Sequence record: OQ708376.1
Reading direction: 5' to 3' (one strand)
DNA: 64,000 nucleotides
Origin: Escherichia phage vB_EcoM_CRJP21
The notes under the pieces were generated by a model that made no database searches, was not told the DNA's origin, and was given only the letters and a program-made list of their open reading frames with translations. Below, piece by piece: positions 2,115 through 23,434 of the stretch. Position 1 is the stretch's first letter; the number at the start of each line of letters is the position of its first letter. The position numbers and the translations under genes are program-made.

Positions 2115-2142
2115 TTGCAAACTATGTTTAATGGCGTATAAT
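2115..2142 (+). promoter_or_regulatory. sigma70-like promoter (TTGCAA, 16 bp, TATAAT)
   Basis: AAAGTACTTGCAA...GCGTATAAT consensus of this region. Confidence 0.65.
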
Positions 2143-2193
2143 GTTTTACATCAGGTGGGGAATAGTTCCCCACTATATAAGAGGATTAAAAAA

Positions 2194-2433
2194 ATGGCTA
2201 AATCAAAAATGTTCTTAGGTCACAAAAACAAAACTCATTGGAATGTAAGCCTTTGGATTAATAACGATGAGGGATTGTATCGGTTGGCCCAGGACTTTAT
2301 TAACGATAGCACTAATCGCAATGATGCGGCCCGTCATATGATGTTATTTTTAGAACAGACTGGACAAGATAAAACACCGGACGGATTCAAATATAGCACT
2401 ACTGCGATCCGTGCGGCGATGGTTGGAATGTAA
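2194..2433 (+). CDS. hypothetical protein (79 aa)
   Basis: internal ATG after promoter, hairpin 2156-2173 and RBS. Confidence 0.6.
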   Translation: MAKSKMFLGHKNKTHWNVSLWINNDEGLYRLAQDFINDSTNRNDAARHMMLFLEQTGQDKTPDGFKYSTTAIRAAMVGM

Positions 2434-2519
2434 TAGAATTTATTTAAAGTACTATCATTTTTTTGCGATAGTACTTTATAATAGTGTTTTATTCATACAC
2501 CAACGATAAGGGCAACAGC

Positions 2520-2786
2520 ATGAAAATTAAGTATTTTGCGACGCGTGAACAAGCTCGGATCGCCGCACGCCAGGACGGGGCAACGTTTAAAGATATGGGC
2601 GTACAATCGGAACGTGGTAAACGTTGGGCCATTGTAAAGCGTAGTACCGCCAGATCATTACAGTACTGGTTAGCGGCCTTAAAAAGTCCCGATAGTGTAT
2701 CGCGTCGAGTGGTAGAAATAAAGCTCGACCGAAAGGGCAACCGCGTGACCGTGTACCGTACTAAAAAGATTGCAGTACTTGAATAA
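2520..2786 (+). CDS. hypothetical protein (88 aa), paralog of 14497..14892
   Basis: shared KYFATREQARIAAR and DRKGNRVTVY motifs; RBS TAAGGG. Confidence 0.6.
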   Translation: MKIKYFATREQARIAARQDGATFKDMGVQSERGKRWAIVKRSTARSLQYWLAALKSPDSVSRRVVEIKLDRKGNRVTVYRTKKIAVLE

Positions 2787-2793
2787 AAAGTAC

Positions 2794-2821
2794 TTGCAAA
2801 CTATGTTTAATGGCGTATAAT
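2794..2821 (+). promoter_or_regulatory. sigma70-like promoter (TTGCAA, 16 bp, TATAAT)
   Basis: near-identical to promoter at 2115. Confidence 0.65.
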
Positions 2822-2873
2822 GTTTTACATCGAGAGCGGGAACTCTTCCCGCCTATAACCTGGAGTAATGAAA

Positions 2874-3104
2874 ATGACTAATATGTATATGACTGAAGTT
2901 AAAACCGTAAAAGATACTACCACGAATAAAACTACTTACTTACAGCGGATCTGTGGTGTATGGCAACGTATCAGCAAATCAAAGTACTTTAAATTAACAT
3001 CATATGCAAACCGTTCGGATTCATTCAGTACTGAAATAAAAGGTAATAAAGTACACCAATACGGCACTTATTATTATTATAGCCTGGACGCGATTGCAGT
3101 ATAA
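2874..3104 (+). CDS. hypothetical protein (76 aa)
   Basis: ATG 8 nt after GGAG; hairpin 2836-2852. Confidence 0.55.
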   Translation: MTNMYMTEVKTVKDTTTNKTTYLQRICGVWQRISKSKYFKLTSYANRSDSFSTEIKGNKVHQYGTYYYYSLDAIAV

Positions 3105-3186
3105 GCAGTTTACAAATCTTTACAATTGCCGGTATTGACTTATTTTGTCAGTACTGGCATAATGTATTCATTGGCAGATAAGCCGT

Positions 3187-3214
3187 AGCCCATAGGGTGC
3201 GGGAGTGTATCTAT
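3187..3214. repeat. R2 motif copy (AGCCCATAGGGTGCGGGAGTGTATCTAT)
   Basis: about 28-bp motif recurring at about 9172, 13194, 16469, 18721. Confidence 0.55.
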
Positions 3215-3245
3215 AGAAAAATTAGTTTAGTATAGTTACAATTGT

Positions 3246-3303
3246 GCACCCGGTGGGTTAGCTGTTGTCATGGGGTATATTATACCAGTACTTGATAATG
3301 CTG
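3246..3303. repeat. R1 element copy 2
   Basis: matches 1081..1145 and 4778..4833. Confidence 0.5.
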
Positions 3304-3354
3304 TCAATACTTTTTTTTTACTATTCAGTACTGAAAACTATTTTTAAAAAGTAC

Positions 3355-3382
3355 TTGCAAACTATGTTTAAAGGCGTATAAT
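3355..3382 (+). promoter_or_regulatory. sigma70-like promoter (TTGCAA-TATAAT), upstream member of tandem pair
   Basis: consensus boxes. Confidence 0.6.
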
Positions 3383-3389
3383 GTTTTAC

Positions 3390-3465
3390 ATCAGGACGGG
3401 GAACGAAATAAGTAACTTCCCGTTAAGTAGCCCAGGAGTAAGGCACACGAAAAACTCCCCTGATA
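3390..3465 (+). ncRNA. candidate structured leader / small RNA (copy 1)
   Basis: about 75-nt element with two imperfect hairpins between tandem promoters; second copy at 13300..13375. Confidence 0.35.
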
Positions 3466-3472
3466 AAATAGT

Positions 3473-3500
3473 TTGACAAATGTTTTTAAAAGCGTATAAT
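3473..3500 (+). promoter_or_regulatory. sigma70-like promoter (TTGACA, 16 bp, TATAAT)
   Basis: consensus boxes, proximal to gene 3533. Confidence 0.6.
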
Positions 3501-3532
3501 ACTTACATCAACTACTGAATGAGGGTTACAAA

Positions 3533-4144
3533 ATGAAAACTATCACTACTACTACTTATGTTATGGCTTTTTCTGAATTGAACGCAGAACAACAAACGTC
3601 AGCTATCGAACTGGTTCGGGAACGTGAAAAAAACTCAAACGACAATTATTTTTCTGAAAGTGAAATTGAATACTATAAAGAAACAGTACTACCGGAATAT
3701 GGCATTAATGACGCTGAAATACAATTCAGTGGTTTTTGGTCCCAGGGTGACGGTGCATCAATCAGTACTGACCACGTTGACGCAGTGAAGTTTTTACGCA
3801 AGGTAAGAGCATTAACTAAGTATCGCTCAATCCGTCACTTGCTGAATGAAGATGATTTGGCGATGAGTGTAAAACGTTCGCACTCCCACTACTCGCATGA
3901 GAATACTGTAAGCGGGTACATTGAATCGGCTTACACTGATTTAACCGCAAAACAAGAAACGTTAGTTAATGAGCTTGAGGAACTACTCACTGAAACTATT
4001 CGTGAATTGTCCCGCAAGTTGTACCGTGATTTAGAGAATGCATATGAGGATCAATTCACTACTGAAAACATTACGGCACTGATTGAGGGTAACGAATATC
4101 AATTCAATGTTATTGATGGCGTAGTAGAATCAATCGAATATTAA
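3533..4144 (+). CDS. hypothetical protein (203 aa)
   Basis: track ORF; RBS GAGGG 7 nt upstream. Confidence 0.7.
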   Translation: MKTITTTTYVMAFSELNAEQQTSAIELVREREKNSNDNYFSESEIEYYKETVLPEYGINDAEIQFSGFWSQGDGASISTDHVDAVKFLRKVRALTKYRSIRHLLNEDDLAMSVKRSHSHYSHENTVSGYIESAYTDLTAKQETLVNELEELLTETIRELSRKLYRDLENAYEDQFTTENITALIEGNEYQFNVIDGVVESIEY

Positions 4145-4156
4145 TTTAAAAAGTAC

Positions 4157-4184
4157 TTGCAAACTAAGTTTAAAAGCGTATAAT
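4157..4184 (+). promoter_or_regulatory. sigma70-like promoter (TTGCAA, 16 bp, TATAAT)
   Basis: consensus boxes. Confidence 0.6.
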
Positions 4185-4236
4185 ACTTTATATCGAGAGC
4201 GGGAATAGTTCCCGCTACTAATGAGGAATACTACAA

Positions 4237-4401
4237 ATGAATACTTTTACCTTCGCTCAATTGAACGCCCTGGATGTATTGTCTGATGCTTTGCGGGATG
4301 CAACTGAAAGCGGTTTATTTGACAATGTTGACATTCACCCTGATGTAATTAATAATTTTTGTGATGCTATCGCAGAAGTACTGGAAGATCTAAAAAAATA
4401 A
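4237..4401 (+). CDS. hypothetical small protein (54 aa, not in ORF track)
   Basis: hand translation MNTFTFAQLNALDV...; promoter + hairpin + RBS upstream. Confidence 0.55.
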   Translation: MNTFTFAQLNALDVLSDALRDATESGLFDNVDIHPDVINNFCDAIAEVLEDLKK

Positions 4402-4411
4402 TAGAAAGTAC

Positions 4412-4439
4412 TTGCAATTAGTTTTCAGTACTGTATAAT
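4412..4439 (+). promoter_or_regulatory. sigma70-like promoter with extended -10 (TTGCAA ... TGTATAAT)
   Basis: consensus boxes. Confidence 0.65.
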
Positions 4440-4489
4440 GGTTTACATCAAAGGGAGAAATGGTTCTCCCTGGTAATGAGGAAAATACA

Positions 4490-4711
4490 ATGGCTAATAT
4501 CACTACTCTTTCCCAACTGGAAGCACTGGTTAAATCTATGCGGGAACATGCTGACAAAATCGGCGTACAAGATCCAGCCGTTTGCTTCTGCGACGAATTG
4601 AATGATGATACCCTGGTAATAGCAGAAGTCCAGGACGTTTCTAACTATTCCTCGCGTTACACTGGCGGCGTAGCAAATAAAGGTGACTTCTGTTTATACC
4701 TTACAAAATAA
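4490..4711 (+). CDS. hypothetical protein (73 aa)
   Basis: internal ATG after leader hairpin 4453-4470; track start lies inside the hairpin. Confidence 0.6.
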   Translation: MANITTLSQLEALVKSMREHADKIGVQDPAVCFCDELNDDTLVIAEVQDVSNYSSRYTGGVANKGDFCLYLTK

Positions 4712-4712
4712 C

Positions 4713-4748
4713 AACGCGGGGAGATAATAACTCCCCGTTACTTTTTCA
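4713..4748 (+). terminator. rho-independent terminator (GC stem + T-run)
   Basis: CGGGGAG-ataataa-CTCCCCG then CTTTTT. Confidence 0.6.
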
Positions 4749-4777
4749 GTACTGAATCATTTAATAGACGGATCTCG

Positions 4778-4833
4778 GCACCCGGTGGGTTAGTGACTGT
4801 TTCGTCTTGATGTAGTAATTATGCCAGTACTGG
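4778..4833. repeat. R1 element copy 3
   Basis: GCACCCGGTGGGTTAG...CTTGATGTAGTAATTATGCCAGTACTGG. Confidence 0.5.
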
Positions 4834-4954
4834 ATGCACTTGTCAACAATTATTTTCCAAATACTTTTTATTAAAATACTTGCAATTAGTTTTTAAACGC
4901 GTATAATGTTTTGCATAGGGGGAGCGGTTCCCCTGGTAACTAAGGAATAATAAA

Positions 4955-5191
4955 ATGCTTGAACAAATCAAATCAACGTCTTCGAATGTAACGGGAACGG
5001 TAGCACACTTTACTAGTGATGAATCGCGGGGCGTTCCCTATTGTGCTGTACATGTAAACACTGAGGGTAACTACTGGTTTACGGTTTACGGATCATATTC
5101 ATTTGGACGGCCTGGACATCAAAAAATTCTGGATAAAGTACAACCAACGGGTAAAAATATCACTGCCGAAATGTTTTATAAAAAATCATAA
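4955..5191 (+). CDS. hypothetical protein (78 aa)
   Basis: track ORF; promoter + GGGGAGCGGTTCCCC hairpin + RBS. Confidence 0.65.
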   Translation: MLEQIKSTSSNVTGTVAHFTSDESRGVPYCAVHVNTEGNYWFTVYGSYSFGRPGHQKILDKVQPTGKNITAEMFYKKS

Positions 5192-5275
5192 AGTACTTGC
5201 AATTAGTTTTTAGTACTGTATAATATTTTACATCGCAAGGGGAAACGGTTTCCCCTGGTAACTAAGGATAATCAA

Positions 5276-5575
5276 ATGAAAATTGCAATCATCGCCCTGG
5301 CTTTATCTGTTTCCTCTTTCGCTGTTAATGCGTCATTAGATGTAAGTAGTGAAAAATTCATTCAGTGCACTGTTGCAATGACCGATGAAAGAACTGGCGA
5401 GATTGTATTAAAGGATTTAGAGATCCAGCCGGAAGCATTTAAAAACGGCCCGTTCCATGAAGAAGACGAAAACGGTAGCACGACAATTTATTATGATGCC
5501 AGTACTAAACGCGGTTCGGTCACTGTAATGGATACCGAGAAAGTAACTCATACCGGCGTTATTAATTGCCGTTGA
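5276..5575 (+). CDS. small secreted/periplasmic protein (Sec-type signal peptide)
   Basis: N-terminus MKIAIIALALSVSSFAVNA with AxA-like cleavage site. Confidence 0.6.
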   Translation: MKIAIIALALSVSSFAVNASLDVSSEKFIQCTVAMTDERTGEIVLKDLEIQPEAFKNGPFHEEDENGSTTIYYDASTKRGSVTVMDTEKVTHTGVINCR

Positions 5576-5596
5576 TAGATACTACGGGGTAACATC

Positions 5597-5827
5597 ATGA
5601 CTAAGCGAATTGTTTTACTTAACGAAAGCAGTACTACACAACTACTTAACGCCGTGCATTATGATATTGAAACGAGCGTTAATCTTATCAGTACTGTAGT
5701 TCTGTTGGACACTGGAAAGGTAGCCAATGATAAAGCGATTGCAGGTATACTAACGGATCTTGTGCCTGGTAGCAGTGCACCAATAACGTTAAATGGTAAA
5801 GTGTTTAATATTTTACTCACTGATTAA
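5597..5827 (+). CDS. hypothetical protein (76 aa)
   Basis: track ORF followed by terminator. Confidence 0.55.
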   Translation: MTKRIVLLNESSTTQLLNAVHYDIETSVNLISTVVLLDTGKVANDKAIAGILTDLVPGSSAPITLNGKVFNILLTD

Positions 5828-5833
5828 GTACAT

Positions 5834-5857
5834 AGCCCACCTGGTGGGCTTTTTTGT
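5834..5857 (+). terminator. rho-independent terminator
   Basis: AGCCCAC-ctg-GTGGGCT + TTTTTTG. Confidence 0.7.
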
Positions 5858-6060
5858 TTTTGTAGTATCGTAGTACTGAGATACTTTGAAAATAGTTTTA
5901 AAAAAGTAGTTGACATTACCACAGAAAAGCGTAGAATGTATTACATCAAGACGGGGAGCACTAAGTAGACCGCCAGTAAGTCGAACGAAAAACTGGACAC
6001 GTCGAGAAAACTTTGATACACTAATAAACGTAAACTAAACTTTAATTGAGGATTTATAAA

Positions 6061-6543
6061 ATGGCTAATGTAAAATCATTCATCAAAGCACTGGTAGCAA
6101 ATGAAACTAACGTCGCGGCTGAGATCCTGGCTGAACTGGATAACGATACCATGAAAGCGGTACGCAACAATTTTAACATTGCGTACAGTGAAGCTAAAGA
6201 ACTGCAAGCCAAAAAGGTAGCAGAACTGGAAGAACAGAAAAAAGCCCGTGAAGCAGAACTACAAGCAACAATTGAAAGTATTCAGGCGGCAGTGTCTGGA
6301 TTGGATCTGGAAGTGGTTGTAGAAATGGCACATAAAGCCCTGGCGGTTAAGTACGGTGAAGATAAGCCGGAATCTAAACCTAAAAAATGGATTCAAGAAC
6401 GTGTTACTGTAGTACTTGATAACGGTGAAGAACATTTGATTCCTGTACGCGGTAACTGCATTGCGGTAGTACTGGACGCTATCAAAGAAAGCGGTATGAC
6501 TCGCGAGGAATGGATCGAAGCTCATCGCAAAGTTGAAGCATAA
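6061..6543 (+). CDS. hypothetical protein (160 aa)
   Basis: ATG 8 nt after GAGGA; promoter TTGACA/TAGAAT at about 5908-5936. Confidence 0.65.
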   Translation: MANVKSFIKALVANETNVAAEILAELDNDTMKAVRNNFNIAYSEAKELQAKKVAELEEQKKAREAELQATIESIQAAVSGLDLEVVVEMAHKALAVKYGEDKPESKPKKWIQERVTVVLDNGEEHLIPVRGNCIAVVLDAIKESGMTREEWIEAHRKVEA

Positions 6544-6564
6544 CAATTAAAGTACTGAATCACT

Positions 6565-6592
6565 AGCCCACCTTAAACAGTGGGCTTTTTTG
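6565..6592 (+). terminator. rho-independent terminator
   Basis: AGCCCAC-loop-GTGGGCT + TTTTTT. Confidence 0.7.
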
Positions 6593-6610
6593 TGTCTGTA
6601 GTATTCCAGT

Positions 6611-6680
6611 CCACCAGCACCGCCTAGAATCGATTCTAACGCATTAAACTGATTATCTGATACATCGCCCTAGCTGGTGG
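6611..6680. repeat. inverted Chi-like octamer pair (CCACCAGC ... GCTGGTGG) flanking inverted R4 motif
   Basis: direct read. Confidence 0.55.
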
Positions 6681-6828
6681 CGTTAAGGTCGTTAGAATGC
6701 GATTGAGAGCGTTTAAAGTATTTTGCAAAAAGTAATAAAAAGTACTTGCACGATTAAGAGATTAGCGTATAATGTTTTACATCGAGAGGGGGAAACGGTT
6801 CTCCTTCCAAATCAAAGGAATCAAAACA

Positions 6829-7056
6829 ATGGCTATTATCATTACTCGCGTATCTGGTACTACTGGCAACGAACAAGTAGTTGCAGTCATTACTAACAAG
6901 GCAGGTGCGGAATTGCAAAATGCAATGAATACCTGGGCCGTTAATGAGTTCGGTCAGTGGGCAAGTGTAGCATACATTGAAACCTATCAAGTGCCGTCGA
7001 TTAGTTTAACTGATTTGGGCGTTGAGCGTATCCTTTGCCTGGATGAATTAAATTAA
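6829..7056 (+). CDS. hypothetical protein (75 aa), MAII-start paralog group
   Basis: internal ATG after promoter and hairpin; N-terminus resembles 7143 and 10054 genes. Confidence 0.6.
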   Translation: MAIIITRVSGTTGNEQVVAVITNKAGAELQNAMNTWAVNEFGQWASVAYIETYQVPSISLTDLGVERILCLDELN

Positions 7057-7142
7057 AAAAAGTACTTGCAAAGTAAATCGAATAAAGTATAATACATTAC
7101 ATCAAGGGGAGAAATGATTCTCCCCACTACAAGGAAACTAAA

Positions 7143-7355
7143 ATGGCTATCATTACTAAAATCAAAGTTAACAAGACTATCGTTAAACTGGCAGAAGTGA
7201 AAGAAGGTTATAAAGTATCTTGGTGCGGTATGTATCGGACGTTCGCAGATATAGATGATGCGATCAATTATTACAGTGACACGGTTAAAAACTTTGTTCG
7301 TGCTGATGTGGTTATGGCAGTGGCAACATATAAAGCAGCGAAAGAAAGTAAGTAA
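7143..7355 (+). CDS. hypothetical protein (70 aa), MAII-start paralog group
   Basis: track ORF; promoter + GGGGAGAAATGATTCTCCCC hairpin. Confidence 0.65.
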   Translation: MAIITKIKVNKTIVKLAEVKEGYKVSWCGMYRTFADIDDAINYYSDTVKNFVRADVVMAVATYKAAKESK

Positions 7356-7374
7356 AAATATTATCACAGTACTA

Positions 7375-7403
7375 TTGACATAGTTTGATAGTACTGGCAT
7401 AAT
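7375..7403 (+). promoter_or_regulatory. class-II promoter (AGTACT-flanked TTGACA, 17 bp, CATAAT), no leader hairpin
   Basis: same architecture at about 9990, 10258, 18047. Confidence 0.6.
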
Positions 7404-7446
7404 AGATTTTATCAAGACGACACATATTAATTTAAGGAATACTAAA

Positions 7447-7770
7447 ATGGCTAAAACTATCATCAACACCGTTTCCCTGGCTGCAATCCATGCAATCAAT
7501 GTTGACGGTAAACGTTGGACTGATTCATATGGCAATACTTATCATTCTTGTCATGTAAGCGTTGAACTGGATAACGGCTTGAATGATCTGGCGGTTGAAT
7601 CATTTACTTATGGCTATGAGGATGCATATCAACAAACGGCGGTATCACTCTTAAAGGAATCAGTAGACGGGCTTGATACTGTTGAAACCTCCCTCTATCG
7701 TTTGTGCAATGATCTTAATATCCCGTTGCATTGTACTGTACAGGATGTAAAACGTAAAAAAGATCTTTAA
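7447..7770 (+). CDS. hypothetical protein (107 aa), paralog of 14078..14401
   Basis: shared RWTD..GNTYHSC..ETFTYGY..DVKRKKD motifs. Confidence 0.65.
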   Translation: MAKTIINTVSLAAIHAINVDGKRWTDSYGNTYHSCHVSVELDNGLNDLAVESFTYGYEDAYQQTAVSLLKESVDGLDTVETSLYRLCNDLNIPLHCTVQDVKRKKDL

Positions 7771-7850
7771 TTAGCTTTACTTTATGCAGATACTTTGATA
7801 TAGTGTCTGCATAGGGGAAAGAAATTAAATCAACTTAAGAGGAAAGTAAA

Positions 7851-8120
7851 ATGAAAAATATCAGTACTTTAATCGATGCAGGTACACATGTTCGTCGGTC
7901 TATGGTTGCAACCAGTTCTACAAAACAAGTAGCGAGCGGTTATCTTGTATTTGTGCACGATGGAAAACTCCTGGAACGTTCAATCAATTTTGATGTTAAA
8001 AACAATTGCCGTTTTATTATCTTTCGCCGTGAACAATATAAAATTGATTTGCCAGCGAAGCCCATTAGCGGGGCGTACAACGTGCAATCATTGTTTGAGC
8101 GTCAACCTTACACCTATTAA
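7851..8120 (+). CDS. hypothetical protein (89 aa)
   Basis: track ORF; RBS AAGAGGAAAG. Confidence 0.55.
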   Translation: MKNISTLIDAGTHVRRSMVATSSTKQVASGYLVFVHDGKLLERSINFDVKNNCRFIIFRREQYKIDLPAKPISGAYNVQSLFERQPYTY

Positions 8121-8171
8121 TCAAAACATCGTTAGCGGTCGATTTAGGCCGCTTATATTGGGGATTATACC

Positions 8172-8444
8172 ATGAACGTTAATCAAGTACTGAATGAGAT
8201 CGAAAGCATCATTAAACCGATGAAGCGTACTGATGCTATGTTAACACCGGAAGAATGCCGCCTTTATGAGCGTTACAGCGTCGAACAAGTCCAGGCAATG
8301 GCTATGGCTACCCCAGCCGTTTCACCGCCTGAGAATGCGTTACAGGACGTTACAGGGGATTATATCATTAATCCAGTACTAGGGAAGATGACTGCAATCA
8401 CCGAAGATCAAAAAGACTACTTAAGCCAGTACTTAAAAGGTTAA
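8172..8444 (+). CDS. hypothetical protein (90 aa)
   Basis: track ORF. Confidence 0.5.
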   Translation: MNVNQVLNEIESIIKPMKRTDAMLTPEECRLYERYSVEQVQAMAMATPAVSPPENALQDVTGDYIINPVLGKMTAITEDQKDYLSQYLKG

Positions 8445-8449
8445 TTAAT

Positions 8450-8659
8450 ATGCTTACTGTACAGGATAAGATCGACATCTTAAAGGTTAATATGTATGTG
8501 ATTGATGCCGTACCTGGTAAAGTATTTGCATACGATGATAGTACTGTAAGCGATTTCTACTATAGCCAGGACGTGGGGGATCTTTCTGTACAGTCGGTTA
8601 TTGAAAACGTAGTTAATGCAGCGTATGAGCATTTACTTTCAAATAGTACTTGCAATTAG
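8450..8659 (+). CDS. hypothetical protein (69 aa)
   Basis: track ORF; next promoter overlaps its 3' end. Confidence 0.5.
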   Translation: MLTVQDKIDILKVNMYVIDAVPGKVFAYDDSTVSDFYYSQDVGDLSVQSVIENVVNAAYEHLLSNSTCN

Positions 8660-8727
8660 TTTTTAAACGCGTATAATGTTTTACATGAAGGGGAGAAATG
8701 ATTCTCCCCAATAACAGGAGAAACAAA

Positions 8728-8880
8728 ATGAAACAATACAACGCTCGGTTTGATGTTACTATCGGTAACGGCAAAGGTCAATTCTCTTTCAGTACTCGCC
8801 GCAGTTATACAGAAAACTTCCTGCGTAATTGTGCACTGACCGCCGCTCAAATTAAACACTATTTTCAGGCTAAAAAATGA
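8728..8880 (+). CDS. hypothetical protein (50 aa)
   Basis: ATG 7 nt after CAGGAG; promoter + hairpin upstream. Confidence 0.55.
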   Translation: MKQYNARFDVTIGNGKGQFSFSTRRSYTENFLRNCALTAAQIKHYFQAKK

Positions 8881-8966
8881 AATCATTAGCTTATTACAGT
8901 TCGGCCCTGGTCGGTGCATTGATCGCGGCATTGTTAGTAACCTATCTATTCTTTATGGTGATTTAA
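8877..8966 (+). CDS. small hydrophobic peptide (29 aa, single predicted TM helix)
   Basis: ATGA overlap with upstream stop; MKSLAYYSSALVGALIAALLVTYLFFMVI. Confidence 0.4.
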   Translation: MKSLAYYSSALVGALIAALLVTYLFFMVI

Positions 8967-9110
8967 ATGAATCCAACAGGTTTAAACTATAAAAGTTGTT
9001 CTGCATTTACGAAAGCAAATAAAGCGAATGCACGTAAAGCGAAAGTACAGGAATACATCAAGCAAGGCATGACGCGAAAAGCGGCGATTATAAAAGCTAA
9101 AAATAAATGA
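8967..9110 (+). CDS. small basic protein (47 aa)
   Basis: TAAATG coupling; K/R-rich. Confidence 0.4.
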   Translation: MNPTGLNYKSCSAFTKANKANARKAKVQEYIKQGMTRKAAIIKAKNK

Positions 9111-9202
9111 AAAAAGTGGTTGACTTCGGTCAGCCATTTTGTTATTATATATTCATTGAGAGATAGCTCACTAGCCCACAGGGTGCAGGAGTGTATCTAT
9201 TG
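9111..9202 (+). repeat. intergenic cassette copy A: hairpin-embedded promoter (R3) + R2 28-mer
   Basis: TTGACT-17-TATTAT inside inverted repeat, then AGCCCACAGGGTGCAGGAGTGTATCTAT. Confidence 0.55.
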
Positions 9203-9320
9203 TATGAGTATTGAGTACTGAAAACTATTTTTAAAAAGTACTTGCAAACTATCTCAATAAGCGTATAATGTTTTACATCGAAAGGGGAAACGGTTTCCCC
9301 TGGTAATAAGGAAACAAATC

Positions 9321-9662
9321 ATGACTATCTCAATTGCTCAATCTAACTTTGAAAATGAAATCATCGCCCAGGCACTGCGTTTAAATGATGGTCGGGCCGA
9401 AATTAATTACGGTTTCAATTCAGGCGGTTGCGAAAAATATCAGTACTTTGTAACGGCTGATGGCGGTGTCCTGGGTATCAATACAGTTATTGTAAACATC
9501 CAAAAAATTAATTTCAATGATCCAGACGATAGCCAGTTTTACATCACTGGCGTAGACGTGAACTATGAGGATGACTCACTAACTGATGATCACACTGGCG
9601 AGCGGTTAGAAAGTGCATACGGTGAAGATGATTATCAGTCCGGTCCAGAAGATTTCGAATAA
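9321..9662 (+). CDS. hypothetical protein (113 aa)
   Basis: track ORF; promoter 9242-9269 + GGGGAAACGGTTTCCCC hairpin. Confidence 0.65.
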   Translation: MTISIAQSNFENEIIAQALRLNDGRAEINYGFNSGGCEKYQYFVTADGGVLGINTVIVNIQKINFNDPDDSQFYITGVDVNYEDDSLTDDHTGERLESAYGEDDYQSGPEDFE

Positions 9663-9758
9663 TATAAAAAAATAGTTTGACAATAGATTATAGTACTGTA
9701 TAATAGTTTACATCAAGGGGAGAAAAACTTCTCCCCACTAACAGAGAGAGAAAACAAA

Positions 9759-9971
9759 ATGGCTAATATCCGGTCGAAATTAAAAAATGCAAAACAAGTT
9801 TTATTTTCAGATCATGAATACTTTAATAAAGATATTACAGGAGTTACAAGTATCAAGGAAGTAAAAGAAAAAACCGGCGTTTTGTGTGATGTGCGATTAG
9901 TTGGAACATTTGGGAATAACGTGCTATATCGCTGCGGTGATTACAATTTTACACTGACTATCATTAACTAA
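9759..9971 (+). CDS. hypothetical protein (70 aa)
   Basis: track ORF; promoter TTGACA...TGTATAAT + hairpin. Confidence 0.6.
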   Translation: MANIRSKLKNAKQVLFSDHEYFNKDITGVTSIKEVKEKTGVLCDVRLVGTFGNNVLYRCGDYNFTLTIIN

Positions 9972-10053
9972 AAATATTATCACAGTACTATTGACATAGT
10001 TTGATAGTACTGACATAATAACTTTTATCAACTACACTATTAAGGAATTAAAA

Positions 10054-10233
10054 ATGGCTATCATCGCAAAAACTGAAATCGTTGGTCTGGATTCTATCAT
10101 CATGACGTTTGAAGATCAAAAAGGTATGTATGTAGTTTCATATGGTGATTATGTTCGGGAGTATGAAACGGTAGACGAAGCCTTTGAAAGTTACATTCGC
10201 CAGGTGAATAAAGCATACGACGATTACCGCTAA
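10054..10233 (+). CDS. hypothetical protein (59 aa, not in track), MAII-start paralog group
   Basis: hand translation MAIIAKTEIVGLDS...; class-II promoter upstream; replaces track minus ORF 10100..10300. Confidence 0.55.
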   Translation: MAIIAKTEIVGLDSIIMTFEDQKGMYVVSYGDYVREYETVDEAFESYIRQVNKAYDDYR

Positions 10234-10332
10234 AATATATTACCAGTACTATTAAAGATATTGACAACGTTTGATAGTACTGTATAATAAGTTTTATCAA
10301 CAGTAGTTAACTTAACCTAAGAGAGAAATAAA

Positions 10333-10476
10333 ATGATCGCACTGGATTCATTCATCGACGCAGTACTGGCAAAAACTGGCGAGGATCTGACCGCAGAACA
10401 ATACGCAATGATCGAGCAATGCCAGCAAGACGGTAAATCGGTGAAAGATACTGTTAAGATTATCCGCAAGATGTAA
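10333..10476 (+). CDS. hypothetical small protein (47 aa, not in track)
   Basis: class-II promoter + RBS AAGAGAGAAA; terminator follows. Confidence 0.5.
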   Translation: MIALDSFIDAVLAKTGEDLTAEQYAMIEQCQQDGKSVKDTVKIIRKM

Positions 10477-10482
10477 GATTAT

Positions 10483-10512
10483 AGCCCACTGGTTAACGCT
10501 GGTGGGCTTTAA
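10483..10512 (+). terminator. candidate terminator hairpin (contains Chi octamer GCTGGTGG at 10498-10505)
   Basis: AGCCCAC-loop-GTGGGCT, weak T-run. Confidence 0.4.
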
Positions 10513-10581
10513 TTCATTACCCTATACAATGCCAGTACTAAACCGTTTATCTCGTTAGAATGCGTTACAGGACGTTTAACA

Positions 10582-10779
10582 ATGATTAGCATGAAATCAG
10601 TACAAAAACAAATAGAAACATTATCAAAAATTAAACGTAAACAGTACTCCTTAGAATATACAATCAATGGTAACTATCATCTAATGAAAGAGAATAATTT
10701 TATAGTCATTGATGAATCATTGCAAATCATTAGTATAGTACTGAAAGCATTAATCAATGACAGAAAAAAATTAAAATAA
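10582..10779 (+). CDS. hypothetical protein (65 aa; alt start 10591)
   Basis: track ORF preceded by R4 motif. Confidence 0.45.
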   Translation: MISMKSVQKQIETLSKIKRKQYSLEYTINGNYHLMKENNFIVIDESLQIISIVLKALINDRKKLK

Positions 10780-10874
10780 ACTATTGACAATATCATCAAG
10801 TACTGGCATAATACTTACATCAAGACGAGAACGTCACTAACCCATAGGGTGCACAAATGTAACTGTATAATATT

Positions 10875-10905
10875 GATCAAAAAATGATCTGATCAATACT
10901 TGATC
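10875..10905. promoter_or_regulatory. cluster of four GATC sites (three TGATCA palindromes) in 31 bp
   Basis: direct read; intergenic. Confidence 0.5.
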
Positions 10906-11110
10906 AATTTGCGTAAAGTAGTATAATTCTATGCAGTTGGTTAGACGAAAGGTTATGATTAGTAGTGCAAGTGTATAAAAATTTTCATGGTGTATCGTTT
11001 CGCACATATGGGGATGAATATGTGGTATCATGTGGATTGGAAAAAGTAAGAACAAGTAATATTATTGTCGCATTACAGTACTATAGTATTTTTATAATGA
11101 GGTTAAAATA

Positions 11111-11368
11111 ATGGCTGTAGGATTCGCGAAAGATGGGGCCGAACAAGACGAGATTAACGCAGTGATTCAGGCCGCCGTTAACCACGCTAGAAAGCAAATT
11201 AACGCACAAATAGAATCACTGATACATTGCCTCGACTGCGGCGATATAATCCCTGAGAATCGACGCCAGGCCGTTAAGGGATGTAAGTACTGCATAACTT
11301 GCCAGGAGGATCATGATAGTACTTTTAAACGTCCCCCGCGTAATTGTTGGCATAGATCTATGAGATAA
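11111..11368 (+). CDS. TraR/DksA-family C4 zinc-finger protein
   Basis: CLDCGDIIPENRRQAVKGCKYCITC matches CxxCG-x3-IP-x2-RR-...-C-x2-C signature. Confidence 0.65.
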   Translation: MAVGFAKDGAEQDEINAVIQAAVNHARKQINAQIESLIHCLDCGDIIPENRRQAVKGCKYCITCQEDHDSTFKRPPRNCWHRSMR

Positions 11369-11431
11369 AAAGTATTGACAGTACTGAAAGATAGTGTATA
11401 ATGTTTTATATCTTAACTGAGGATAGAAATC

Positions 11432-11788
11432 ATGGGAATACAACATATCACGCGTACTACTGACAATGGCGAGATCACTGGTTATCAAGTACAGGGCAAA
11501 GTAGCACAATTGCAGTACTGGTTTGTTAAACGTGGAATCATTGCACCGGATCTTGATTATGACCGTGTAGCGTTTATTGATTCTCTTTATGTTGATCCTG
11601 ATAGTCGGGGCAATGGTGAAGGTAACGAATTAATGAATGCCTTTATTGATGCCGCCGATGATTCAGATTGTATCATTTTAGAATGCGATACGGGAGAAGA
11701 TAACGCCTTTAATCTTAAAGAATGGTACGAAGGTTTCGGATTCGAGGTACTGATCGATAGTGAATATCCTATCATGATTTTATCATAG
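11432..11788 (+). CDS. putative GNAT-like acetyltransferase (small)
   Basis: RGNGEGNELMNAFIDAA resembles GNAT motif A; assignment tentative. Confidence 0.4.
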   Translation: MGIQHITRTTDNGEITGYQVQGKVAQLQYWFVKRGIIAPDLDYDRVAFIDSLYVDPDSRGNGEGNELMNAFIDAADDSDCIILECDTGEDNAFNLKEWYEGFGFEVLIDSEYPIMILS

Positions 11789-11866
11789 TACTTGCATTTA
11801 GTTTTCAGTAGTGTTATAGTACTTACATCAAGGGGAAACATCTTCCCCTACTAAGAGGAAATGAAA

Positions 11867-12055
11867 ATGGAAAACTTATCAAGTATTTTAGTACAAGATG
11901 ATTTCGGTAATCCTGGAAGTGCTATCATTGTTCGGGGTAATAAAGCAACATTTGTTATTGCTGGTGGACCTGTACAGCGTAGCATTAAAAACAATGCCGT
12001 TACTATTAATAATGTACGCTATCGCTTAGATAAAGAATTGATTCATAAACTGTAA
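11867..12055 (+). CDS. hypothetical protein (62 aa)
   Basis: second ATG, 7 nt after AAGAGGA. Confidence 0.55.
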   Translation: MENLSSILVQDDFGNPGSAIIVRGNKATFVIAGGPVQRSIKNNAVTINNVRYRLDKELIHKL

Positions 12056-12082
12056 TATTAATTTAATAGAGGATAACAATAA

Positions 12083-12406
12083 ATGTACATTCATACTACT
12101 ATCACAAAGGAAGTCCGTTGCCAGTTCGAAAGTATTCCGGGCGTATGTTTCATCACTGGTACGTTTTCCCCTGGTGATCGTGATAATCCAGTACTGTTAC
12201 AATTACGCCATCCATCATGGGATAAAGCATTTGATCTACCGTTGAATGAATTCGCAACTACTGCTGAAAAGTACATTAAAAATATTCGCGAGAATGATCG
12301 ACTATTCATTAATGCTTTTAGTGATTCCGCGTTAAGCGAGATCCACGGTGTATTGGTTGCAATCATGGAATCAATGGAGAAAACTAAATTCAAACAAGGT
12401 GAATAA
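12083..12406 (+). CDS. hypothetical protein (107 aa)
   Basis: track ORF; RBS AGAGGA. Confidence 0.6.
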   Translation: MYIHTTITKEVRCQFESIPGVCFITGTFSPGDRDNPVLLQLRHPSWDKAFDLPLNEFATTAEKYIKNIRENDRLFINAFSDSALSEIHGVLVAIMESMEKTKFKQGE

Positions 12407-12412
12407 AAACTA

Positions 12413-12440
12413 TTGACAAGATAATCTAGTACTGTATAAT
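12413..12440 (+). promoter_or_regulatory. sigma70-like promoter with extended -10 (TTGACA, 16 bp, TGTATAAT)
   Basis: consensus boxes. Confidence 0.65.
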
Positions 12441-12489
12441 AAGTTACATGAAGGGGAGAAATGATTCTCCCCACTGAGAGGAAAGAAAA

Positions 12490-12702
12490 ATGCAAGGTCA
12501 ACTAATCGTTCGTAAATGGTCTGATACTAACGCTAAACCGTGGGATGTACAATACATCGGACCGGATGGGGTATCACGTTATCAGCCTGGCGTAACGCAT
12601 AGTACTGAGCAATATGCCGCCGCTCACCGCGAACGCCTGTTAGAATCCATGAAACAGGGATACGGTGAAAAATTCATTCAAGATCATTGGCTGAAAGATT
12701 AA
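12490..12702 (+). CDS. hypothetical protein (70 aa)
   Basis: track ORF; promoter + hairpin. Confidence 0.6.
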   Translation: MQGQLIVRKWSDTNAKPWDVQYIGPDGVSRYQPGVTHSTEQYAAAHRERLLESMKQGYGEKFIQDHWLKD

Positions 12703-12719
12703 TATAAGGAGTACAGCTT

Positions 12720-12812
12720 ATGCAAATGAATCCGATGATTATTGTTTTAGCTGTACTTATGATCATTCATGCAATAGTAGAAGTATTAACGCAATCAGGA
12801 GTAATAAAATGA
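12720..12812 (+). CDS. small hydrophobic peptide (30 aa, predicted TM)
   Basis: strong RBS TAAGGAG 8 nt upstream; MQMNPMIIVLAVLMIIHAIVEVL... Confidence 0.5.
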   Translation: MQMNPMIIVLAVLMIIHAIVEVLTQSGVIK

Positions 12813-12982
12813 TTCAAGTAGAATTATCAGTACTGAAAGATCTGTTTTATCGGTTAGGTACTACTGGCGAGTATCCTAAAAGTGATACCGCAAAACTTTT
12901 TGTATCACTCGACTTATGGCAACGCGAACAATTAGTAATGTCCTGGCGTAAAGGTAAAGCAGATAGCGAGGTGAAAGCATGA
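12809..12982 (+). CDS. hypothetical small protein (57 aa, not in track)
   Basis: ATGA coupling to upstream peptide. Confidence 0.45.
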   Translation: MIQVELSVLKDLFYRLGTTGEYPKSDTAKLFVSLDLWQREQLVMSWRKGKADSEVKA

Positions 12983-13128
12983 AAGAATTCTTATTCGAAG
13001 TAGTGTTTCAAGGTGTCGGTAGTAACCAACTGATTCGCTCAAGTGGTTACAATGTTAACCAGGCATGGAATAACATTAAACAAATGTACCCGAACGCTAT
13101 CACCTATCGCAACCCGAAACAAGTTTAA
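12979..13128 (+). CDS. hypothetical small protein (49 aa, not in track)
   Basis: ATGA coupling. Confidence 0.45.
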   Translation: MKEFLFEVVFQGVGSNQLIRSSGYNVNQAWNNIKQMYPNAITYRNPKQV

Positions 13129-13137
13129 AAATAATTG

Positions 13138-13234
13138 AAAAAGGGATTGACTCCGGTCAGTCCCTTTGCTATTATATACGCATAGAAACAAATCAGCCCA
13201 CAGGGTGCATAAATGTATCTATTGTTTGCTGGTG
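13138..13234 (+). repeat. intergenic cassette copy B (R3 hairpin-promoter + R2) followed by Chi octamer 13227-13234
   Basis: near-identical to copies at 9111, 16409, 18667. Confidence 0.55.
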
Positions 13235-13299
13235 GCTAGTACTGAAAACTATTTTTAAAAAAGTACTTGCATTGTACTTAGAATCAAGTATAATGTTTT

Positions 13300-13375
13300 A
13301 CATCAGGACGGGGAACGAAACAAGTAACCCCGTTAAGTAGTCCAGGAGTAAGACATAAGAAAACCTCCCCTGATA
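13300..13375 (+). ncRNA. candidate structured leader / small RNA (copy 2)
   Basis: about 90 percent identical by eye to 3390..3465; between tandem promoters. Confidence 0.35.
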
Positions 13376-13443
13376 AAATAGTTTGACAATAGAAAGTAAA
13401 CGAGTATAATACTTACATCAACCACTGATAAGGAAACATTAAA

Positions 13444-13719
13444 ATGCGGATTCTACTGACAGCTAACGAAATCGAACAAGTACTGACTACTAACCTGGAA
13501 GACTGGAAACGTGAAGCAGATATCCAGGCGGTTCAACGGCTTAACGATGAGTTAACGCCGGATGACTTAAGCAAGATTGTAGATCCTCAATTCTACGAAG
13601 ATATCCACGACACCGCGTTAAGCGTCGAGGATGTACTAGATAAGCACTACATTGATATTGATTTGCAGGTTTACGGTCGTAAAAACTTTATCACTATTCA
13701 CGACATTTACAATAATTAA
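13444..13719 (+). CDS. hypothetical protein (91 aa)
   Basis: track ORF; promoter TTGACA-16-TATAAT at 13382-13409. Confidence 0.65.
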   Translation: MRILLTANEIEQVLTTNLEDWKREADIQAVQRLNDELTPDDLSKIVDPQFYEDIHDTALSVEDVLDKHYIDIDLQVYGRKNFITIHDIYNN

Positions 13720-13805
13720 GTATTGACAAAGTATCTTAGTACTGTATAATAGTTTACATCGAGAGGGGGAATGGTTCCCCTCCTAACAAAGAGAGAGAAA
13801 TAAAA

Positions 13806-13988
13806 ATGGCTAAATGCACTATCTGTAAGAAAGAAATCGTATTAGTTCCAAGTGCCCGTGAACGTGCCGCTCGGTTCGGTGGCAAAGCGTCAGACTATAC
13901 AAAAATGTTTACTACCCATGCAGCTTGCCAGGTAGCAAAACGTTCACAAGAAAGCGTAGAATTAATGCGTAAACTTTCCAAAAAATAA
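13806..13988 (+). CDS. hypothetical protein (60 aa, Cys-containing)
   Basis: track ORF; promoter + GGGGGAATGGTTCCCCTCC hairpin. Confidence 0.6.
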   Translation: MAKCTICKKEIVLVPSARERAARFGGKASDYTKMFTTHAACQVAKRSQESVELMRKLSKK

Positions 13989-14077
13989 GTATTGACAAAG
14001 TATCTTAGTACTGTATAATAGTTTACATCAAGCGAGGGGAATGGTTCCCCTCCTAACTAAAAGAGAGAGAAATAAAA

Positions 14078-14401
14078 ATGGCTATGATCCTTACCCAGAA
14101 AGTAGAACTGAAAATTGTAACCTCCTTTGACATTAAAGTTAATCGCTGGACTGATCGGAACGGTAACACTTACCACTCTTGCTACGTGTCCGCGTTAATT
14201 GGCGACCGCTGGGAAGACTTGGGACATGAAACCTTTACTTACGGTTACGGTACACAAGGAGAATACACGGGCTTGGAGATCATTAAAGAAACCGTTATAG
14301 GTTTCAACCCGAAAGAAAAAGTTATTCACCGCATCGAAAAAGAGATTAACAAAGAAATAACAGTTCGCTACTACGATGTAAAACGTAAGAAAGACATGTA
14401 A
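14078..14401 (+). CDS. hypothetical protein (107 aa), paralog of 7447..7770
   Basis: promoter/leader duplicated from the 13727 copy. Confidence 0.65.
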   Translation: MAMILTQKVELKIVTSFDIKVNRWTDRNGNTYHSCYVSALIGDRWEDLGHETFTYGYGTQGEYTGLEIIKETVIGFNPKEKVIHRIEKEINKEITVRYYDVKRKKDM

Positions 14402-14496
14402 TAGAATCCATTTAAAGTACTATTTGACATTGCCCAGATAGTACTTTATAATAGACTCTAACTTGTAGTACTAACTCAACTAATAGGATGTATACC

Positions 14497-14892
14497 ATGA
14501 TTACTAAATTCTACGCTACCCGTGAAGCTGCCCGTATTGTTGCACGCGAGGAAGGAGCAGCATTTAAAGACATGGGCAAAGATGCACCGAAAGGTCAACG
14601 CTGGGCCGTACAGTTCAAAGAAATCTCTGATATCGTGAATTCACCGGAGCCAGTACTAACAGCAGCAGAACTAAAACGAGCGGATTTACTGGCGGCAGTA
14701 CTTAACGCACAAGATGAATTTATCGCTGATTCTGATATCAAAGTACAGACAAACCATACCGCTTGGACTCACGCGGATCACCTGGCAAACCTTAAGCGTC
14801 CAAGTGAACTGGTTCGCAACCAGAAAGAGATCCGACACGACCGTAAGGGTAATCGTGTAACAGTATACAGTAAACGCCGCCAGGTTATCTAA
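14497..14892 (+). CDS. hypothetical protein (131 aa), paralog of 2520..2786
   Basis: ATG 8 nt after TAGGA; shared motifs. Confidence 0.6.
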   Translation: MITKFYATREAARIVAREEGAAFKDMGKDAPKGQRWAVQFKEISDIVNSPEPVLTAAELKRADLLAAVLNAQDEFIADSDIKVQTNHTAWTHADHLANLKRPSELVRNQKEIRHDRKGNRVTVYSKRRQVI

Positions 14893-23433: not shown

Positions 23434-23434
23434 C

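Follow-up and report, generated by a model that had tools for sequence, protein, structure and literature searches.

A predicted structured leader RNA of a jumbo coliphage is a relative of the T7 A1 leader

Introduction

What is the role of an element of about 75 nt, able to fold, that separates two promoters in the genome of a large coliphage? The question is raised by a 64,000-nt stretch of Escherichia phage vB_EcoM_CRJP21 (OQ708376.1; the whole of this stretch is referred to below as the window). An earlier note on this DNA had described such an element in two copies, as a local duplication, and had proposed either a cis-regulatory leader or a separate small RNA. The comparisons reported here indicate that a widespread RNA motif, predicted to lie at the start of the earliest transcripts in many enteric phages, includes this element as one of its subtypes.

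Three copies of the element in the window

The 75-nt element was found as an exact match at 3390-3464 (copy A), with 0 matches in 100 shuffles. The second copy (copy B), previously placed at 13300-13375, is indeed present, at 13302-13374. Its description as near-identical was slightly generous, since 6 substitutions and a 2-nt deletion leave about 89% identity to copy A. The 6 substitutions are confined to predicted loops or the junction, and the deletion changes helix P2 from ACGGGGA/UUCCCGU to ACGGGG/CCCCGU with pairing kept. A divergent third copy (copy C), overlooked by the earlier note, lies at 5945-6017. In the window, the motif TAAGTAG-N8-TAAG-N6-GAAAA gave 3 matches where 0.12 are expected, and covariance model R1 recovered exactly three copies, which scored 54, 50 and 36 bits against 9 bits for the runner-up. 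All three lie inside the ~21-kb terminal repeat of this Asteriusvirus-type jumbo phage; three copies per repeat amount to six per genome. The features are as follows (promoters by consensus match):

3355-3382, + strand: upstream promoter of copy A, TTGCAA-16-TATAAT
3390-3464, + strand: copy A, predicted leader RNA module (50.4 bits, E 7e-12)
3390-3395 with 3459-3464, + strand: copy A, predicted helix P1
3396-3402 with 3417-3423, + strand: copy A, predicted helix P2
3424-3430, + strand: copy A, junction UAAGUAG
3435-3438 with 3455-3458, + strand: copy A, P3 (loop 3439-3454)
3473-3500, + strand: proximal promoter of copy A, TTGACA-16-TATAAT (12/12)
3533-4144, + strand: gene 3′ of copy A, phrog_5162 (no assigned role)
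5910-5937, + strand: promoter of copy C, TTGACA-16-TAGAAT (11/12)
5945-6017, + strand: copy C, divergent subtype without P2 hairpin (35.7 bits, E 9e-8)
5945-5950 with 6011-6017, + strand: copy C, closing helix AUCAAG/CUUUGAU
5950-5953 with 6000-6003, + strand: copy C, closing helix GACG/CGUC
5962-5968, + strand: copy C, UAAGUAG
5973-5976 with 5993-5996, + strand: copy C, P3 CCAG/CUGG
5977-5992, + strand: copy C, P3 loop UAAGUCGAACGAAAAA
6013-6041, + strand: weak promoter-like site, TTGATA-17-TAAACT (9/12, consensus match only)
6046-6543, + strand: gene 3′ of copy C, phrog_27871
13267-13294, + strand: upstream promoter of copy B, TTGCAT-16-TATAAT
13302-13374, + strand: copy B, predicted leader RNA module (54.4 bits, E 5e-13)
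13302-13307 with 13369-13374, + strand: copy B, P1 (P2 is ACGGGG/CCCCGU)
13334-13340, + strand: copy B, UAAGUAG (P3 is GGAG/CUCC)
13383-13410, + strand: proximal promoter of copy B, TTGACA-16-TATAAT (12/12)
13444-13719, + strand: gene 3′ of copy B, phrog_14947 (no assigned role)

As had been described, copies A and B are each bracketed by an upstream and a proximal sigma-70-type promoter, ahead of the genes at 3533 and 13444. Both begin about 7 nt past the -10 box of the upstream promoter and end 9 nt short of a perfect TTGACA-16-TATAAT. Judged by promoter spacing, the copy A transcript is predicted to start at A3388 or A3390, and the window copies at about +1 to +3 of their predicted sigma-70 promoter transcripts. 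At least 24 promoter cassettes of this kind, the upstream promoter of copy A among them, are present in the window, and the cassette of copy B also stands directly 5′ of the genes at 16535 and 19234. Hairpins precede two of the promoters: one at 13140-13167 upstream of the copy B promoter, and a terminator-like one at 5834-5850 just upstream of the copy C promoter. The weak site at 6013-6041 overlaps the 3′ strand of the copy C closing helix.

Several other identities were rejected. ARAGORN detected no tRNA or tmRNA in the window, and Rfam 15 gave no match, whether to the window at gathering threshold or to a T7-like locus with E up to 5. The element contains no ATG, GTG or TTG and therefore no small ORF; a 12-codon ORF in the copy A proximal promoter is missing from copy B. 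A hammerhead-like reading of CUGAUAAG...CGAAAC was discarded, with CUGA not conserved, no stem II and no Rfam match. The best match to rRNA (16S 868-884) was no better than in 4 of 100 shuffles and was treated as chance.

Predicted fold and covariation

The two imperfect hairpins proposed earlier were predicted in copies A and B (MFE -19 kcal/mol, z = -2.4 and -2.7), together with a closing helix P1, AUCAGG/CCUGAU, absent from the earlier note. The A-type fold would thus comprise P1, a GC hairpin P2, the unpaired UAAGUAG and P3 with a 16-nt loop UAAGNC....GAAAA. For copy C and two relatives of it, the predicted fold was no more stable than that of shuffled sequences (z about 0). We defined the motif as a single-stranded UAAGUAG and, 4 nt on, a helix of 4-5 bp that closes a loop of 16-17 nt (UAAGNC....GAAAA), a pattern carried exactly by all three window copies. 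The sequence just 3′ of P3 pairs with an upstream segment, the P2 loop or the 5′ end: AUCAGG/CCUGAU in copies A and B, GACG/CGUC plus AUCAAG/CUUUGAU in copy C, and a pseudoknot in T7-type members.

Covariation between the two copies and homologues had been suggested as a check, and the outcome depended on the sequences compared. Among copies A and B and close homologues the stems are invariant and only loops differ, so that the window's own subtype carries no covariation signal because its stems never vary. With divergent relatives added (copy C and T7-type, Munch-type and metagenomic members) the signal is strong. P3, only 4 bp long, is 95-100% paired across five stems (GGAG/CUCC, CCUG/CAGG, CUUG/CAAG, CCAG/CUGG and AUCU/AGAU), with double changes in 3 of 5 pairs; the observed values were reached by 0 of 500 shuffles. 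In the T7-type pseudoknot, the P2 loop pairs with 6 nt located 2 nt past P3, with compensatory changes at 5 of 6 pairs (variants GUCAA/UUGAC, GUCAAG/CUUGAC, GUCGGU/ACCGAC, GUCAUC/GAUGAC and GAUUAG/CUAAUC). It is 87% paired, compared to 15-35% when the partner strand is slid. While stems change, UAAGUAG and UAAG.C....GAAAA are invariant in distant phages. P1 is supported solely by analogous, non-alignable helices in other subtypes; no P1 covariation was found in the window's subtype, which grew by just two near-identical contigs when metagenomes were scanned.

These data also bear on a reading at the DNA level, in which the segment serves the proximal promoter as an upstream activating or protein-binding site, or is an 'empty' cassette scar left where a gene between two cassettes was deleted. 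Promoter cassettes are repeated and clearly swapped between phages, the proximal -35 has A-tracts (GAAAAA, AAAATAG) on its upstream side, and the A2 -35 of T7 doubles as the 3′ strand of the pseudoknot. Nevertheless, 9 of 22 sequences show G-U at one P3 pair on the promoter-sense strand, where the opposite strand would give C-A mismatches. As read from the alignments, these G-U pairs and the compensatory changes reveal that selection acts on pairing within one strand. Moreover, the next -35 lies 2 to ~45 nt from the element across relatives and is missing in two metagenomic ones (L036 and L043), and a scar would not stay 84-100% identical in differing contexts across three phage lineages. We regard this explanation as very improbable.

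Relatives in T7 and other phages

The T7 A1 leader is a true relative of the window element in both sequence and structure. The T7 copy covers nucleotides 536-593 (58 nt), +39 to +96 of the A1 transcript, where we take A1 to start at 498 and the A2 -35 to lie at 589-594 (promoters of Dunn and Studier 1983). T7-type leaders share with the window copies the UAAGUAG junction, the P3 helix and a near-identical loop, and phiA1122, a T7-like phage, has exactly the copy C loop. They also share the location 3′ of a strong host-type promoter, usually ahead of a second one. The two types differ after P3: the T7-type strand pairs with the P2 loop to form the pseudoknot, whereas that of copies A and B pairs with the 5′ end to form the nested P1. 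Unlike the window copies, T7-type copies have an extra 5′ hairpin upstream and a boxA downstream.

T7 is among the best-studied phages, and in vitro transcription work uses A1 with its native downstream DNA as a standard template. We found no published name or function for the T7 segment; literature searches with its sequence string returned only template listings. Searches by motif string and topic, and of catalogues, likewise yielded no description of the motif.

The core motif was detected by BLAST in 584 Autographiviridae records, with one copy per T7-like left end according to the covariance model. The A-type module is found complete in 44 records, from Asteriusvirus, Justusliebigvirus and Vequintavirinae, and the motif is also present in other jumbo phages. 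Across three lineages the A-type module is 84-100% identical in differing contexts: homology of phage A7_1 to the window is restricted to 3381-3468, and in outra, A73 and muut the module sits 5′ of unrelated genes. In LIMElight the element lies between two annotated host promoters. Everywhere it occupies the sense strand within about 100 nt 3′ of a sigma-70-type promoter (predicted, except for T7 A1 and A2). Thus, what had been taken for a local duplication is a discrete module common to at least four phage lineages, including T7. As for host chromosomes, none of 5,426 E. coli genomes gave a BLAST match to a T7-like leader. Scanning 185,579 species genomes for the pattern yielded at least 120 matches; among the matches listed, all were chance-like except one T7-like contig.

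Comparison with known leader RNAs

The HK022 put RNA is about 70 nt long with two stem-loops, putL lying directly after the early promoter, and acts in cis on host RNA polymerase with no need for a phage protein (PMC9378689). The window element, likewise a predicted two-stem RNA of this size directly 3′ of a promoter, is a candidate analogue. No similarity was seen by model R1 at putL or by eye against putL and putR, and put folds as two long stems arranged in a V, with a triplex, in contrast to a short helix with a 16-nt loop here. A put-like antitermination activity of the window element is suggested by analogy.

PeSL cassettes of T4-type phages carry stem-loops within or upstream of the promoter, which terminate upstream transcription (PMC2839356). 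Like the window, they combine repeated strong sigma-70-like promoters with GC stem-loops, flank small genes of unassigned role in a plastic early region and are exchanged between phages (PMC2839356). The window elements have no such terminator stem-loop: their hairpins lie 3′ of the predicted start, lack a T-run and contain conserved unpaired motifs.

The boxB-boxA leaders (lambda nut, rrn) resemble the motif in having a small hairpin, a GAAAAA-containing loop and an untranslated context. The loop is larger in the motif (16-17 nt versus 5 nt in lambda and 12 nt in rrnB), and the rrnB P1 leader gave no match to model R1. A boxA follows the hairpin by 12-20 nt in L043 and L036 and lies farther downstream in T7, K1F, CR8 and EspYZU05; that of T7-like phages is identical to rrn boxA. 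The first 31 kb of the window contain no boxA (GCTCTTTA or GCTCTTA), so that a Nus/boxA mechanism alone cannot account for the window copies.

Possible modes of action

These comparisons establish the sequence family, its strand, its location after promoters and its covarying helices; we infer from them the transcription, 5′ end, folding, ligand and effect of the element. They also support the earlier proposal of a non-coding structured 5′ leader of the upstream promoter, presumably transcribed, between tandem promoters. Our preferred reading, which we hold with as much doubt as belief, is that each copy would be a ~75-nt 5′ leader domain, folded co-transcriptionally, read by a host factor and acting in cis. 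Transcripts from the upstream host-type promoter would begin with this folded domain. The ligand of its unpaired nucleotides would most likely be a conserved host component, since these nucleotides are conserved in unrelated phages sharing only enterobacterial hosts, and since T7 makes its A1 leader RNA at a time when no phage protein is yet present. The RNA would preferably act on its own polymerase or transcript, and the effect could be anti-pausing or antitermination, by analogy with HK022 put or Nus/boxA leaders, combined with 5′-end protection. Transcripts of the upstream promoter would then behave unlike those of the proximal one. The boxA near the element in relatives can be counted for a link to elongation control. 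The strong promoter often found right after the element is explained no better by a cis than by a trans model.

The alternative that survives best, possible though rather unlikely in our judgement, is a trans-acting small RNA: an abundant 75-nt species, cut from a read-through transcript, would sequester or redirect a host protein at the start of infection, for example a nuclease, a defence sensor or an RNA chaperone. Its 5′ end is base-paired, the domain closes exactly before the next promoter, the gene behind has its own strong promoter and the module moves independently of that gene. The six copies per genome and loops conserved as expected of a protein-binding site also agree with a decoy. 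Nevertheless, there is no intrinsic terminator (GC hairpin and T-run) in or after any copy, the sequence after P1 being AAAATAGTTTGACA. This speaks against the small RNA ending before the proximal promoter that the earlier note had envisaged, and a discrete RNA would need a processing step; processing from read-through is possible. In addition, T7-like phages have a single copy each, and in L036 and L043 the element runs into boxA and gene with no second promoter.

The element could also be a mere 5′ stabiliser that has no specific ligand, a larger form of the GC hairpin found after most early promoters of this genome, shielding the mRNA 5′ end from RNase E and RppH. At least 20 other window promoters have a simple hairpin 3′ of them, which P2 resembles, and pairing of the 5′ end in P1 agrees with such a role. 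End protection needs neither the invariant unpaired nucleotides nor a covarying pseudoknot, and we consider it improbable as the sole function. A riboswitch-like sensor, in which a small molecule reporting host physiology tunes early transcription, is suggested by the 5′ leader location and the compact fold with pseudoknot or three-way junction and conserved unpaired nucleotides, but is very unlikely, with no expression platform (terminator or sequestered ribosome-binding site) and no Rfam riboswitch match.

Implications

Taken together, these results suggest that the 58 nt between T7 A1 and A2 specify an RNA with a covarying pseudoknot, that hundreds of T7-like phages conserve this RNA, and that jumbo, rV5-like and phAPEC8-like coliphages carry a rearranged form of it. 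More tentatively, and with the balance against it, this may be an undescribed class of host-factor-binding RNA, the first product of phages from T7 to 350-kb jumbo phages, which would either reprogram the elongation complex with no phage protein, as a second put-like system, or neutralise a host defence or RNA-decay factor ahead of any phage protein. Should RNA polymerase or a host factor prove to be the target of the RNA, infection would open with a protein-independent step, which the available T7 genetics and in vitro systems could address directly. The motif would also serve as an annotation marker for immediate-early transcription units, and 'tandem promoters' of phages may bracket functional RNAs.

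Three copies of a predicted structured leader at sigma-70-type promoters

Three related sequences of about 75 nt are present in the window:

3390-3464, copy A
5945-6017, copy C, past a promoter at 5910-5937
13302-13374, copy B

Copy A is the exact 75-mer quoted in the earlier note. The near-identical second copy reported there also exists, as copy B, with six substitutions and a 2-nt deletion relative to copy A. Placement between an upstream and a proximal promoter was confirmed, since sigma-70-type sites flank both copies: each starts 7 nt past the -10 box of the upstream promoter (3355-3382 and 13267-13294, respectively) and ends 9 nt short of a perfect TTGACA-16-TATAAT promoter (3473-3500 and 13383-13410). 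Between the two loci the promoter spacers are unrelated, while hexamers, initial transcribed bases and the element itself are retained. No start codon lies inside the element and no Rfam match to it was found. A tRNA identity was ruled out, as no tRNA was called on it.

In the predicted fold, helix P1 (AUCAGG/CCUGAU) closes the element and hairpin P2 stacks on it. An unpaired UUAAGUAGNCC(A) junction leads to P3, a helix of 4 bp (GGAG/CUCC) that carries a 16-nt loop. The two hairpins suggested previously are thus both predicted, as P2 and P3, with P1 in addition. Folding energy of copies A and B is -19 kcal/mol (z = -2.4 and -2.7), and all six substitutions between them fall in predicted loops or the junction.

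In copy C, P3 is CCAG/CUGG instead of GGAG/CUCC, P2 is missing, and the element is closed by GACG/CGUC and AUCAAG/CUUUGAU. The window holds three occurrences of the pattern TAAGTAG-N8-TAAG-N6-GAAAA, with 0.12 expected, and a covariance model retrieved exactly three sites (54, 50 and 36 bits), the next best scoring 9 bits.

The element is shared by unrelated phage groups, including T7

BLAST with copy A matched 44 phage records. Beyond Asteriusvirus, these include Justusliebigvirus (outra, muut, EmilieFrey) and Vequintavirinae (A73, W70, A7_1, A5-4), at 88-92% identity. The order promoter-element-promoter-gene was found in every Justusliebigvirus and Vequintavirinae case, with different genes and upstream promoters, and in A7_1 similarity to the window is limited to 3381-3468, that is, to the element itself. 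The element is a mobile module. These groups share numerous early gene cassettes at 72-92% identity, so recent exchange accounts for part of its conservation; despite this exchange, the element keeps boundaries of its own.

Copy C also matched positions 553-587 of Yersinia phage phiA1122, which is closely related to T7. The core is present in both T7 and phiA1122, downstream of the A1 start (498) and upstream of the A2 -35 (589-594). The T7 layout is a hairpin CCGG-GGUCAA-CCGG, then A-UAAGUAG-ACAG, then CCUG-AUAAGUCGCACGAAAAA-CAGG, and the P3 loop of phiA1122 is identical to that of copy C. A 66-nt T7-like segment retrieved 584 phage records, from Studiervirinae (of Escherichia, Klebsiella, Salmonella, Yersinia, Citrobacter, Enterobacter and others), Melnykvirinae and Limelightvirus; in LIMElight, two annotated host promoters flank the element. 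Pattern scans of IMG/VR gave further variants, including the 366-kb jumbo contig L021, whose type also occurs in Salmonella jumbo phage Munch, and the short metagenomic contigs L036, L043 and L052. Among the matches listed in a pattern scan of bacterial chromosomes (one genome per species), only chance hits were seen, save one T7-like contig, and an E. coli-wide BLAST of the T7-like leader gave no match. The evidence so far marks the motif as a feature of phages.

Covariation supports P3 and a pseudoknot

The comparison of the two copies proposed earlier as a covariation check was uninformative, since no stem position varies in the window subtype; support came instead from mixed-subtype alignments. 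In an alignment of 26 sequences, pairing in P3 reaches 95%, and three of its five pairs have changed on both sides (CG/GC/AU, CG/GC/UA and UA/AU/CG), values that none of 500 shuffles equalled. Observed P3 stems are GGAG/CUCC, CCUG/CAGG, CUUG/CAAG (independently in L030 and LTH01), CCAG/CUGG, AUCU/AGAU and a U-G variant in the compared sequence L059.

T7-type copies are predicted to form a pseudoknot, as the 6-nt P2 loop is complementary to 6 nt starting 2 nt past P3 and both strands covary.

Pseudoknot strands (P2 loop/3' strand)
T7: GUCAA/UUGAC, the 3' strand being the -35 of A2
EspYZU05: GUCAAG/CUUGAC
L008, a compared sequence: GUCGGU/ACCGAC
K1F and the compared sequence L067: GUCAUC/GAUGAC
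CR8: GUCAUC/GAUGAU
LIMElight: GAUUAG/CUAAUC

Among 22 sequences, compensatory changes occur at five of six pairs, with 87% of cells paired; when the partner strand was slid, pairing fell to 15-35%, and 0/500 shuffles reached the observed values. On the promoter-sense strand, G-U pairs are found at one P3 pair in 9 of the 22, which points to that strand as the RNA. In the window and Munch/L021 subtypes the sequence past P3 pairs with the 5' end, not with the P2 loop (for example AUCAGG/CCUGAU, CGGC/GCCG, GCGGC/GUCGC, GACGG/CCGUC and CAACGAA/UUCGUUG). Nested and pseudoknotted topologies are predicted to bring the same parts side by side.

Genomic setting

Bases 3000-4500 share 99% identity with EC.P1 and fEgEco12, both Escherichia phages (in the latter at the same coordinates, 2792-4507), which identifies the window as the left-hand end of a jumbo coliphage of the Asteriusvirus type (PBECO4/121Q group). 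Since the direct terminal repeats of fEgEco12 are 20,993 bp long (PMC13070987), every leader copy falls within the terminal repeat. At least 24 sigma-70-type promoter cassettes (361-19288) occupy the first 20 kb, most with a short GC hairpin a few nt past the predicted start. In several (e.g. 6741, 13718) the initial transcribed sequence ATCGAGAGGG equals +1 to +10 of T7 promoter A1. Other features of the region are:

779-906, close to the genome end, array of repeats with an 8-bp period (GGATGGCT, AGACGGCT, AAACGGCT and similar)
3307-3279, minus strand, promoter with perfect TTGACA-17-TATAAT and extended -10 TG, directed away from copy A into a stretch without obvious ORF
13127-13221, 16397-16491 and 18655-18749, repeated composite element AAAAAGGGATTGACTCCGGTCAGTCCCTTTGCTATTATATA, whose 12-bp hairpin, flanked by runs of A and T, resembles a terminator in either direction

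The array may be linked to end recognition or packaging. The composite element also holds TTGACT-17-TATTAT and is followed by a conserved CAGCCCAC.GGGTGCA. The palindrome AGTACT occurs 254 times in the whole window (17 expected), in promoter cassettes (spacers, AAAAAGTACTTGCA, CAGTACTG) and in coding DNA. Several families of repeated coding segments are present at 37054-39153, 22703-24162 and 26584-51113. Their periods are about 450 and 270 bp and a peptide motif of the EE.FQ type recurs in them, a sign of paralogous gene families past the terminal repeat.

The E. coli Chi sequence GCTGGTGG is found 12 times against 0.37 expected (578-18790, and 58765). Eleven of these sites lie in the terminal-repeat region, eight of them on the plus strand (6673-18790); the one at 13228 adjoins copy B's upstream promoter on its upstream side, and Chi also adjoins promoters in the related jumbo phages L021 and Munch. 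This enrichment suggests that entering genome ends are shielded from RecBCD.

A cis-acting role is favoured

The invariant positions are the unpaired ones (UAAGUAG and UAAG.C....GAAAA), while helices drift with compensation. This is not the signature of a generic stabilising hairpin and points to a specific partner. Carrier phages have hosts in common but not proteins, and in T7 the first 850 bp entering the cell yield the element RNA before any phage protein; the partner is therefore expected to be a host component conserved in enterobacteria. In all cases, the element falls in the first 100 nt of a (predicted) transcript from a strong host-type promoter. In the short metagenomic contigs L043 (4154-4190, CGCTCTTTAACAATCTGG) and L036 (5429-5470, TGCTCTTTAAAAAC) a boxA follows 12-20 nt past it, then directly a gene, without second promoter; T7-like phages have a boxA of rrn type at a greater distance downstream. 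No boxA was found in the first 31 kb of the window. Together, a probable host partner, the 5' position and the boxA link favour a model in which the leader RNA would act in cis on the elongation complex or on the fate of its own transcript.

A processed trans-acting RNA is a serious rival. A strong promoter usually lies 2-45 nt past the element: the element could help upstream-initiated polymerases pass it, or the upstream unit could equally exist only for making the RNA. The separately terminated small RNA of the earlier note is not supported, as none of the three copies contains a terminator-like site or is followed by one; its reading as a non-coding structured leader between tandem promoters stands.

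For the favoured cis-acting role, the HK022 put RNA offers a comparable logic for an element whose function is predicted only. This RNA, about 70 nt with two stems, lies immediately past PL and needs no phage protein (PMC9378689); it shows no relation to the element by sequence or by model. PeSL cassettes of T4-type phages are different, their stem-loops lying in or before a promoter and terminating upstream transcription (PMC2839356).

In its 5' portion, the A1 leader of K1F type (L069, K1F, 201-255) aligns with the E. coli rrnB P1 leader (L073, about 210-262) through GACACGGnAACAAC and ACGCC..GGGTCA..GGTT (z = 4.2; 0/300 shuffles as good), while other T7-like leaders have only GACACGG in common with it. 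Leader alignment, tandem promoters and rrn-type boxA are hints that T7-like early regions mimic rrn leaders. The resemblance of GUUAAGUCGACCGCCUG (E. coli 16S rRNA 868-884, L204) to GUUAAGUAGACAGCCUG of the T7-type element is probably due to chance, 4-44 of 100 shuffles scoring equally.

We found no Rfam family and no paper describing the motif by T7 sequence, motif or topic, older subscription literature on T7 being outside our reach. Its mechanism we can only infer. The best-supported conclusion is that the element is a conserved, folded leader RNA module common to the window phage and T7. Among the structured leader RNAs at the 5' end of early phage transcripts, a broad kind already known, it constitutes a new family whose dual topology is unusual.
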